Source: Lama glama (taxonomy: Eukaryota). Taken from it: 64,000 nt of DNA. Positions 15,951-30,719 of the stretch are shown piece by piece. The stretch covers positions 1,240,001-1,304,000 of the forward strand of contig CM052850.1 of the NCBI GenBank assembly GCA_028534125.1, written 5' to 3'. Within the stretch, counting starts at the first letter, position 1, and every line of letters begins with the position of its first letter. Under the pieces are notes generated by a model. The model saw nothing but the letters and a program-made list of their open reading frames with translations. It searched no databases and was not told where the DNA came from. Position numbers and translations under genes: made by a program.

Positions 15951-16630
15951 TTTAAGTGTAAAGGTTTTTTTTTTTTATTGTGTAACATAAGCAAAATTAT
16001 TTAAGTTAATAAATCTTTAAAGAACTTCACATGTTCTGATTCCTTCCACTGCCCATCACCCTCACTGCTCCAATGTGTGAGTCGTAATCTTCAGGATAGC
16101 CCTTCCAAAAAGAACTTTTGCTCAGTCAAGTTGTCATGTCAGTCAGTCCATGATTCTTTTAGTTGGGCTTCTCTGATCTCCAGTGGAACACGGACACACT
16201 TCAAAAGCTCCTCACCTCTAATCTTTGGGATCCAGTTTCCTCAAGCAATTTACTTTAGGAGTATTACGTATTTGGGGTTGGGGAAGACGGATCTCCCTGG
16301 TTCTGAGTTCTAGACACTCTTTAAGCAAGCCTCAAGTTTACAGTGTATTTACTCCTAAACTTATCACACCCTGGAACAGGACTGATCGCTGGGGTACGCC
16401 AACACCGACGGTAAAAAGCGCGACCGTCAGCTTTTTCAGTTTATCTAGCAGCTCTGTCTCGTAGTCCTTTCCCACAGATCTATCATGCAGTTCCGTGAGT
16501 AAGGGAAACCACACAGCCACTCTGTGAGGCAGTTCCCACAACGCAGGTCTATGGAAAAAGCCCCATCGGGATAGACCTCAACCAGGAAGCTTTTTTAAAC
16601 TCTAGGTAAGTGGTGACAGAAGCCACCTAC

Positions 16631-26462: not shown

Positions 26463-26534
26463 CATTAGAGGGGACAAGCTGAGCTGCATGTCGATAGTAG
26501 GACTCTGCCTGGCTGGTCTGGTTTCTGTATCGAG
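26463..26534 (-). CDS. SMG7: SMG7 exon 6 (contains R163 of the phospho-UPF1 binding pocket)
   Basis: ctcag|(A)RYRNQTSQAESYYRHAAQLVPSN|gtgagt; 72 nt. Confidence 0.96.
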
Positions 26535-26701
26535 CTGAGAGGGGGAAAAAGAAAGTTTAGTTTAAAAACAAACAAGCAAGCAAGCAAACAAACAGATAAA
26601 ACAGCCAGCAGGGTAATTTTTCCAAAACAGCTATAGTTTTAAGTTTTAAAGTTAATAAACACATTGAAGTTAATTTAAGATGATTAAGACAGAATATATC
26701 C

Positions 26702-27236
26702 TAAAACAAATTAACTATAGGATTATGTGTGAAGTGTCCCTCCANNNNNNNNNNNNNNNNNNNNNNNNNNNNNNNNNNNNNNNNNNNNNNNNNNNNNNNN
26801 NNNNNNNNNNNNNNNNNNNNNNNNNNNNNNNNNNNNNNNNNNNNNNNNNNNNNNNNNNNNNNNNNNNNNNNNNNNNNNNNNNNNNNNNNNNNNNNNNNNN
26901 NNNNNNNNNNNNNNNNNNNNNNNNNNNNNNNNNNNNNNNNNNNAATTTATGTATTTCTTCAATATCTTATAAAGTGATTTTGAAAAACGCCTTATACATA
27001 TTACAATATTAATTATGTATGTGTGCAAAGAATACACTGAAAGCAAAAACCACCTAAATAAACTATTCACTGAATTGCCTCGCAGAACTTGGTGCTTACT
27101 TTGATGTGACCTCTCATGGAGTCAATGATTTCTGACACCAAGAAATCTAAAATCTTTGAACTTTAAAACAGTAATGTTCTCCACTCCTTGTTACTTGGGG
27201 ACAGTCAAAACATAATCCTATAGTTAATTTGTTTTA
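26702..27236. repeat. Perfect 27-bp inverted repeat pair (26702-26728 and 27210-27236) in SMG7 intron 5
   Basis: taaaacaaattaactataggattatgt is the exact reverse complement of acataatcctatagttaatttgtttta; pairing continues inward via tgtccc/gggaca. Confidence 0.95.
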
Positions 27237-27747
27237 TAACCCTTTAGGTCACCTTAAAGGAATGAACAAGAAATAAGTAAGTTATATAACATTCGCAGAT
27301 AAAATCTATAAAATGGAAGTACAACTTTAACTGTAAAAAGGGAACAGTTAAAAATGAACTTTTAATGCACTGGTAGGAAGGAAAGAAGGCAATCTAGTTT
27401 CAGAAGGAGTACTTTTTATAAACCCTACCATTCCAAAAGAGTACAGATTCAATTCAGAAAATATTATGACACCACTTTGAAAAATTTAGCTTTGATTACA
27501 TTTTTGCTGTTTATTACTTGCCTATATCTGCATAAAGTTTGAATAAAATTTAAATCTTAATATGAAAGTTACTTCCTTAAAGATCTTTTGCCAATCACAA
27601 AACATTGAGAAAATCTAAGTTCCTTAAAATACATTTTACAGGTTTCCTCTTATGACAATCTAAGTTATGTGTGGATGGTCAGCTCAAAGTGACTACTGCA
27701 AAGAAAAGCATGAATATATTATCAATCCCTTCACACTAAAGGCTCAC

Positions 27748-27919
27748 CAATGTCTCCGAGGTGGACGAGGCAGTGCTGGCAGATGTAGGAACAGGAGCTG
27801 GACTGTGGCTTCACAATGGCGCTGGTGTGCGTCTGTTTATTGCTGATAATCCCCAGCTGGGAAGACTTCACACGGCATGGTAAATCTACGTTAAACACTG
27901 TACACAGTTCTTGTAATAA
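27748..27919 (-). CDS. SMG7: SMG7 exon 5
   Basis: tttag|LLQELCTVFNVDLPCRVKSSQLGIISNKQTHTSAIVKPQSSSCSYICQHCLVHLGDI|gtgagc; 172 nt. Confidence 0.96.
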
Positions 27920-30719
27920 CTAAAAGGCAAACACGAGCAAGCTTTAGTATTAAGTCAGAACTGGTAAGTCAGAGGTGCGCCAACAGGGAAGTCTGTATAC
28001 GTTAATGTGTGTAGCTAGTATGCACACTGCTGAGACCGGACAGAGAGGGGAGCCTTTCATAGGATACCTAGTGACAGTCATTACAAATCATATCTTTTGA
28101 TTTCTGAAGTATTAGAACAATCTAGGATACACATCTAAAAGGAATAGCGTTAAAAAAAAAAAGACTACCTGAACAGGGTATTCAGACTCACTCAGCATGC
28201 AACTCCATGAAATTTATCTATGTATCTATCTATCTAGAAACACAAAAACCATTAAAGTTGGTTGGCTACAAACTGACTGAAGTGCAAACCCACACATTTG
28301 TTAGACAGCAGGAGTTTCACGTGCTCTGTTTTCTTAAGCCTGAGGTCAACCTGTGCCTTTGCATACAAAAAGATCTCATGTATTACAGACCTGGAAGGGG
28401 CTTCTGAGGTTATGTGGGCCACTGCTCTTTCCTCCTTTCTTCTCTGTTCTGCAGTATGAGGGGGTTCCTCTCCCTGGTGAGAGTGAACGTCTCTGCCTGA
28501 GCATGCCTATTTCATTCTTTTCTGCCTCCTGCCTGTCATCCCCTCATTTTTTAAATCTACTTTCAAATTCTCATGACTATTTGCTGTGGCCTATCAAGTG
28601 TTGTCCACAGAAAAACAGTAATAATAATAACAATAACTATTATTATAAAAAAACAAAAACAAAACCACCAAAGCACCCTCCCTTGTCCCTAGATTTCTCC
28701 TCTAGCAACCTTCTAACGTCTCCTCCTCTTCTCAGCCAAACTCCTTCAAAGGAGGCTCATGTGTCACATCTGCTTTCTCAATCCCTCCTCACTCCTTGAT
28801 CCATCATGATCTGGCCACTCCACAACCCCTGCTCCTCTCCCAGCCCACCATCCACCACTCCACTGAAACTGTGGTAAATACGACAAAGGGTTAGCAACAG
28901 CAAACACAATGGACATTTTCCAGTCATCATTGTACTGGACTTCTGCTACATTCAGAACAGCTGATCTTATGGTTGATAACCGAGCTTCTCTAGATCTTTG
29001 TATCTTGCCAAACATTTCAGTGTTCTTCAAAGGCTTTTCTCTCCCCACCCTGCTCCACGCTCAATGGGTGTCATTCCTGGGCCCCACACAGTTCTTCATG
29101 CTCCGTTCTTACTCATTCAAATATTTACTCATAAATACATTATATCTGGTTATTATAGCACCCACCATGGTAAGTGACAGAAAGAGAGACGAATAAGAAA
29201 ACCTGTGTTCTTACAGAACGCACAGCCAAATGAGCAAGACAGGCACATAAAGCAGTGGGCAAGAGAAGGATGGAGGGAGGAGGGTGGGGAGAGATATCAG
29301 CCAGGATGGCATAAGCCCACAGAACACTCTACATTTAAAATAAACTTCATTCCCTAGGTCACTTGATACACATGTCTTACTTTATCCTTGAGATAAACTA
29401 GTAGCAATACAGTATGTAGGCATGAAGCTCCACTTTTTCAGATAAGGCTAAGAAAAGTGACAGAGATAGCAAGTGTAATAAGGTTACAGAATTAGAAATA
29501 CATTGATTCTATCACCACTCTGCCATATGCAAAATTCACAATACAAAATAAGACACCCTCAGGACCCAACTCAGAAGGATATGAAAGGTCCCCTTTTTCC
29601 TAAAATAATAACCACCTCCATAATCGAATATAAAATCTGTACTCCCTTCGCACGACACGCAGGAATTACCTGCATCTTCACTTAGACCTGTACATTTGGA
29701 ACGAGCAGGAAATTTTCTGACTTAAAACTGAGTAAACAAAATTAGTGCCCAGAGTGGCTAGAGTCTAGAAATACAAAAAGCAAGAAGTACAAGAAAGGAA
29801 CAAAAAATAGGAAAAAAAAAACCCCACGAATAAATGACTGTGGAAGATGGCAAGAAGAAACATGCCAGAAAATAAAGAATTAAGTTCGGCAGGTGCTGAA
29901 AGAACAGACTGGAAAACGAGGCAAGGCTGAGTGTCTACCAAGAAGAAAAAAGAACGTTCACGAAAAGTAAGTCACACATGGCTGGAAACTCATGTGACTG
30001 TCTTACGGTTGAGTTTCTGCCTTAAAGCAGGAATTGCGGGCATACCAGGAAGTTCCTGCTGGTTCAAGGATTCTGGGTGAGAGAGCACCGGTGAGCTTGG
30101 GGGCAGAAACAAGGTGGAACTAAGGAGGAGAAACAGATGTCTAATTCGTTGAGGAAAACCAGATGGCAGTTACTCTGTGAAAACTCCGCTCCAGGGCTCC
30201 TTAGCGCTTCACTCTACATGAAGCATGGAAAACCGACTATAAACATACAATCACCTTTTAACTGTCCACTACAGAAACGTAATGCTATCTTCTTTGGTTC
30301 CCATTTTCTTAGAATAAGGACTATTGTTCTGTTCTTCGATGTTTTAAAAAAAAACAACCCTACAAGCATAATGTTACATTCTTACATTGACTAGGAATTT
30401 GGTTCTGGCTTGAGGGACCATGCTTTAAATAGTTAAACAAAATGATATCTAAGTCAGGATCATCTTCGCAGAAAATATGACAGAGGATAATCGTGCATCA
30501 GCCTCTTCTCAATCTACTCCAAACGGATCTCTATCTCCACTGCTCTAGAGAAGTCACCTTCAAGTCCAAGATACCATAAACTATAAAATGAACTAGTATT
30601 TTATGTAACATTGAGGAAAAAAAAAAAAACAACTCCCAATTAAATGGCGACTGAGCATCCTTTGTAATCGTATCCCTACCTCACAGATGTTAAAATACAA
30701 AAAATTAAGAAATGAGGAA

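Follow-up and report, generated by a model that had tools for sequence, protein, structure and literature searches.

A predicted long-range intronic duplex around a candidate poison exon of SMG7 in the llama

Introduction

The closest described systems are BRD2 exon 3b (complementary regions R1/R2) and BRD3 exon 5b (R3/R4), in which PCCR loop-out represses the poison exons (Petrova 2024, PMC10789245). On a wider scale, a PCCR catalogue sorts its pairs into stability groups that start at -15 kcal/mol (Kalmykova 2021, PMC8052449), RIC-seq-supported loop-outs are described in PHF20L1 and CASK (Margasyuk 2023, PMC10573301), and poison exons tend to have the stronger pairs (PMC8052449, PMC10573301). 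Several RIC-seq-supported pairs were without splicing effect when blocked (Margasyuk 2023, PMC10573301).

Here we describe a stem in an intron of llama SMG7, a gene whose product is required together with SMG5 for efficient NMD (PMC8233366). As in BRD2 and BRD3, one complementary arm is present in each intron flanking a putative PTC exon of a gene-regulatory factor, and as in the PCCR catalogue, PHF20L1 and CASK, a long-range intronic duplex is predicted around a cassette exon. We consider it likely, with a probability of roughly 70%, that pairing of the arms puts an SMG7 poison exon into a loop and so leads to its skipping and to full-length SMG7; pairing in the cell, inclusion of the exon and any regulation are at the stage of prediction.

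Results

All positions refer to the window, that is, the whole 64-kb stretch of llama DNA analysed, in which SMG7 lies on the minus strand (Table 1). The translation of 27919-27748 matches PDB 1ya0 chain A (SMG-7) in 57 of 57 residues, and the intron with the stem (1,213 nt) follows directly after this exon. Together with the splice sites and the reading frame, this supports SMG7 as the gene, as in the initial annotation, which had placed the stem between its exons 5 and 6. The number of the upstream exon follows the human annotation, and residues 105-161 presumably fall within the 14-3-3-like, phospho-UPF1-binding domain. The complementary regions lie wholly inside the two introns flanking the cassette, R1 upstream and R2 downstream. 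Elsewhere in the gene, a full-length SNORA18 match (107.7 bits against a gathering threshold of 70) was found at 16452-16582 of the minus strand, in sense orientation and about 50 nt past an SMG7 exon donor; it may be a retroposed copy, since TAF1D is the usual host of SNORA18.

Table 1. Positions in the window of the SMG7 exons, the complementary arms and the candidate cassette.
Feature	Position	Strand	Remarks and basis
SMG7 coding exon ('exon 5')	27748..27919	-	172 nt, residues 105-161; PDB 1ya0 identity, splice sites, frame
5' arm R1	27198..27236 (perfect part 27236-27210)	-	intron upstream of cassette, ~300 nt before cassette acceptor
Candidate poison cassette exon	26793..26898	-	106 nt; donor/acceptor scores, stop, GC contrast
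3' arm R2	26702..26740 (perfect part 26728-26702)	-	from 52 nt past cassette donor to 167 nt before exon 6 acceptor
SMG7 coding exon ('exon 6')	26463..26534	-	72 nt, strong acceptor, outside stem; splice sites, frame

The perfect inverted repeat, earlier described as 27 of 27 pairs enclosing about 480 nt, was recomputed with the same pairing (26702-26728 with 27210-27236) and a spacing of 481 nt. None in the window is longer, and the runner-up outside poly-A/T runs has 16 bp. A stem of about 36 bp had also been proposed, and the inner helices of 3 bp and 6 bp that it needs do exist, giving arms of 39 nt that are 90% complementary with a spacing of 457 nt; only the 27 bp are firm when the whole loop is folded. 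The duplex energy is -33.7 kcal/mol for the 27 bp and -44.6 kcal/mol for the 39-nt arms with inner helices, which exceeds the -15 kcal/mol where the PCCR catalogue groups begin. After removal of N, none of 60 shuffles of the window and none of 1000 shuffles of the intron reached 27 bp, the top values being 20 bp and 16 bp respectively. The stem is real, single-copy and far beyond chance. All of its 27 pairs are Watson-Crick, so that no pair shows the sense RNA to be the strand that folds, and folding with flanks gave -56.6 kcal/mol for sense vs -53.6 kcal/mol for antisense.

To place the stem among other inverted repeats we used a sample of 664 kb (600 kb of control stretches and the window) with spacing limited to 5 kb, in which 20 perfect inverted repeats of at least 18 bp were left after a complexity filter. 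Six have at least 27 bp. Besides the SMG7 stem, these are three in repeats with many copies within the sample and two that form part of a single 169-nt inverted duplication. Outside sample-repeated sequence only the SMG7 stem and one other locus therefore carry such a repeat in the 664 kb, and because there are so few of them a chance landing around the cassette is unlikely, roughly 1 in 1000 by our own estimate. The 169-nt pair (control locus L046, G000:C5, 2958-3126 and 4078-4246) is GC-rich, with 92% identity, 951 nt apart, and has no further copies within the 664-kb sample.

This pair also tells us that inverted micro-duplications occur in the genome, and the SMG7 arms start and finish with TA, which can be read as a TSD. 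On these grounds the stem could be a neutral, lineage-limited micro-duplication, or else a solitary remnant of a transposon, flanking an exon by accident. We hold this reading to be highly improbable: in 2.35 Gb no second copy turned up of the arm, of the 316-nt right part or of the loop (DNA searches giving lower bounds), what lies inside is exon-like and single-copy, and the placement of the stem is precise. With up to two mismatches, the arm matched the 2.35 Gb genome at two sites, which are the two arms themselves, and the right part and the loop had one match each within the sensitivity of the search. By these sequence comparisons a multi-copy MITE, which the initial annotation had kept as an alternative, is excluded. 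The same annotation had also allowed for an assembly fold-back, and the assembly is indeed fragmented (1,072,352 contigs). Yet the arms differ at 4 of 39 positions and their flanks are unrelated, 13 of the 24 listed runs contain all sampled words of 26944-27950, a region with one arm only, and one of those 13 is not flagged as a possible source. Since frame and splice sites continue intact into the exons on both sides, a fold-back artefact is very unlikely, to the point of being negligible.

The sequence of the loop was taken from genome locus L001, which agrees with the window at every unmasked position. It contains the candidate cassette, whose length of 3n+1 causes a frameshift, with an in-frame stop 68 nt in and 35 nt before the end of the cassette. 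Its inclusion is predicted to end the protein after residue 184 (161 native and 23 new residues), and the stop, preceding exon 6 and further junctions, counts as premature by the >50-nt criterion. The cassette has a GC content of 56% vs 27% in the flanks (contrast 0.29). Its donor (first intron base 26792) scores 5.72, higher than any other of the intron's 75 GT sites, and the true SMG7 donors score 2.77 (exon 5, weak) and 5.83 with the same matrices, which are our own and use textbook frequencies. The acceptor at 26898 has a score of 4.99, the top inside the loop, with a U-rich tract upstream; it is outscored by three cryptic acceptors that precede the stem. One motif at 26827, in the cassette, we take to be of RBFOX type.

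For comparison, tiles of 457 nt were scored after dropping those with N. Both splice scores were reached in none of 71 SMG7 intronic tiles and in 34 of 2,484 genomic tiles, and by the summed splice score 140 of the 2,484 qualify, with a GC contrast of 0.1 in 14 of them and of at least 0.2 in none; as the thresholds derive from the candidate itself, these counts serve as a guide only. The 106-nt form is the best among the seven listed acceptors and was chosen before the human 106-nt exon came to light. Joining one of six further acceptors (27695, 27692, 27369, 27330, 27305 or 27252), five of them ahead of the 5' arm or close to it, to a donor at 27099 always gave an exon with stops, though none of 106 nt and with a weaker donor (4.07), and a second acceptor in the loop at 26860 (68-nt exon) scored -0.19; these were rejected. 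Rfam gave one match in the loop at E<=1 (15.7 bits vs a gathering threshold of 40.5) and no curated family. Two RNA runs contain 0.66 of the words from 26944-27950, a share above what the exon by itself would account for, but these runs consist of contigs, possibly of DNA origin, and carry no weight here.

Human SMG7 exons 5 and 6 probably bracket chr1:183527626-183527731 at similar distances. This interval on the plus strand is the only SMG7 row that we found in eight supplementary files of Lim 2020, where it is an EI_NMD event of 106 nt with NMD on inclusion (PMC7347940). The events listed there come from RNA-seq of human material and from the NMD annotation of GENCODE v28 or RefSeq, with hg38 as the assembly (PMC7347940). 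The human exon thus shares with the llama cassette the gene, NMD as the predicted outcome of inclusion and the length of 106 nt. It is a table row given with neither structure nor function, and we infer its orthology to the llama cassette; a match is likely by gene, event type, exact length and the probable position of the flanking exons. Because the human NMD exon has the same 106 nt, the poison exon is most likely already annotated in human, its length being unchanged between two mammalian lineages. The covered parts of the mouse AS-NMD supplements PMC7726792 and PMC11188260 (12 of 13 files of the latter) hold no Smg7 row. Of the NMD splicing switch proposed at the outset, the anatomy has thus held up, with a stop-containing 106-nt cassette in the loop and a human NMD exon of equal length, while regulation of the switch, conservation or editing of the arms and NMD feedback through the cassette are not supported yet.

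Folding of the 1,457 nt that span exons 5 and 6 gave the 27-bp helix a mean pair probability of 0.94. In the same whole-loop fold the inner 6-bp helix is displaced by rival pairings with a probability of 0.55-0.57, namely a local hairpin at 26763-26735 and a pairing of 27202-27196 with 26802-26796 (the 3' end of the cassette, beside the donor); these predicted alternatives may reflect either a local switch or noise in the folding model. On blocking an arm in silico, the accessibility of the cassette donor moved from 0.34 to 0.42-0.44 and that of the acceptor from 0.50 to 0.54-0.56, and the branch region of exon 6 is accessible in the predicted fold (0.74). Splice-site accessibility hardly depends on the stem, so any effect must come from the geometry of loop-out and not from covering of the sites. 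The visible part of the loop folds like its own shuffles (z -1.19).

Other structures were seen around the stem. An outer helix between 27531-27479 and 26622-26568 is not special, as the same U-rich tract finds a better partner in at least 11 of 952 windows. The region 27270-27485 of the minus strand has a predicted local structure (z -3.04) whose helices cover three cryptic acceptors that precede the 5' arm, one of them (27330) lying under a 10-bp hairpin; the structure was picked post hoc, and 3 of 63 fixed control windows reach z -3, for which reason we do not regard it as special. Further intronic windows of the minus strand with a folding z of -3 or below are 31150-30935, 25450-25235 and 24550-24335.

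For the proposed loop-out, R1 and R2 would pair in the pre-mRNA. R2 would be transcribed 52-90 nt past the cassette donor, and because this is 167 nt ahead of the exon 6 acceptor the duplex could close before exon 6 emerges, favouring the joining of exon 5 to exon 6. Looping geometry rather than masking of splice sites would exclude the cassette. Without a functioning duplex, splicing would include the cassette, translation would stop after residue 184, and NMD would follow. The stem may be a fixed silencer rather than a regulated one. That it is instead a conserved and regulated gate on NMD capacity, with ADAR editing, helicase action or polymerase speed as the trigger that opens the AU-rich helix, so that the cassette enters and SMG7 and NMD go down, we regard as doubtful.

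The duplex may also form and act otherwise, by shortening the intron, promoting the cassette, retaining the intron or yielding a circRNA of the cassette. The small dependence of cassette site accessibility on the stem and the weak donor of exon 5 (2.77) would agree with such a role, as would the circRNA reported for the BRD2 poison exon (PMC10789245), but looped exons are on average less included, and more so with stronger pairs (PMC8052449), and we find this reading unlikely. Its 27 uninterrupted pairs, many of them A-U (19% GC), would also suit the duplex as mainly a substrate of ADAR or dsRNA-binding proteins, and strong enrichment of editing sites is reported for pairs below -30 kcal/mol (PMC8052449); editing of A-U pairs would open the stem, and the idea can be combined with loop-out. 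Against it, SMG7 has 0 occurrences in the covered main text of Pinto 2014 with its 59 conserved editing sites (PMC4053846), and our literature search gave no paper joining SMG7, A-to-I, non-repetitive and dsRNA. As the main function of the duplex this appears quite unlikely.

Discussion

The exclusion of a poison exon by an intronic duplex, which we favour for SMG7, appears to be of a known type at a new place: the stem is likely newly described, and the poison exon itself likely stands already in human annotation. A literature search returned no paper on the SMG7 stem and no study of the cassette; the full PCCR and RIC-seq tables may well include the pair, and the supplements of PMC10573301 and PMC13399680 could list the pair or the exon. 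The SMG7 pair may thus be an unremarked entry of the PCCR catalogues. In the covered parts of PMC11632617, PMC8052449, PMC4174434, PMC4053846, PMC11346455, PMC13399680, PMC11703147 and 10.64898/2026.06.30.735642 (12 of 15 places), SMG7 is absent or only a knockdown target.

If the duplex sets the share of SMG7 mRNA that is discarded, it would give the cell a structure-based handle on NMD strength. If the regulated gate were true, it would be a rheostat of NMD at the level of splicing, separate from 3'UTR feedback and drivable by a single arm-blocking ASO. In practice the locus offers an exact ASO target, where blocking an arm would be expected to lower SMG7 and blocking the cassette to raise it.

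The known NMD autoregulation of SMG7 acts through its long 3'UTR and uORF (PMC7354994), and like the cassette proposed here it ties the SMG7 mRNA level to NMD. The two differ in their response to a fall in NMD: the 3'UTR/uORF loop then yields more productive mRNA, whereas a poison exon, being set at splicing, does not. Feedback of NMD through the cassette does not follow, because less NMD would merely stabilise the truncated isoform and give no extra functional SMG7; the 3'UTR/uORF autoregulation is a separate matter.

As to stability, the first tested pair in the earlier loop-out work (Kalmykova 2021, Margasyuk 2023) has -23.6 kcal/mol and the second -21.6 kcal/mol, computed with another program, vs -44.6 kcal/mol for SMG7. 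By analogy, a loop-out in SMG7 would fit the reported trends of lower inclusion for looped exons and of stronger pairing for poison exons. The BRD2 and BRD3 cases were established with ASOs and compensatory minigenes and have conserved arms, whereas the SMG7 stem is predicted from sequence. It differs from them also by its place in the gene of a core NMD factor and by its uninterrupted, AU-rich helix of 27 bp, and it adds an unusually strong and clean predicted case to the few validated loop-outs of poison exons.
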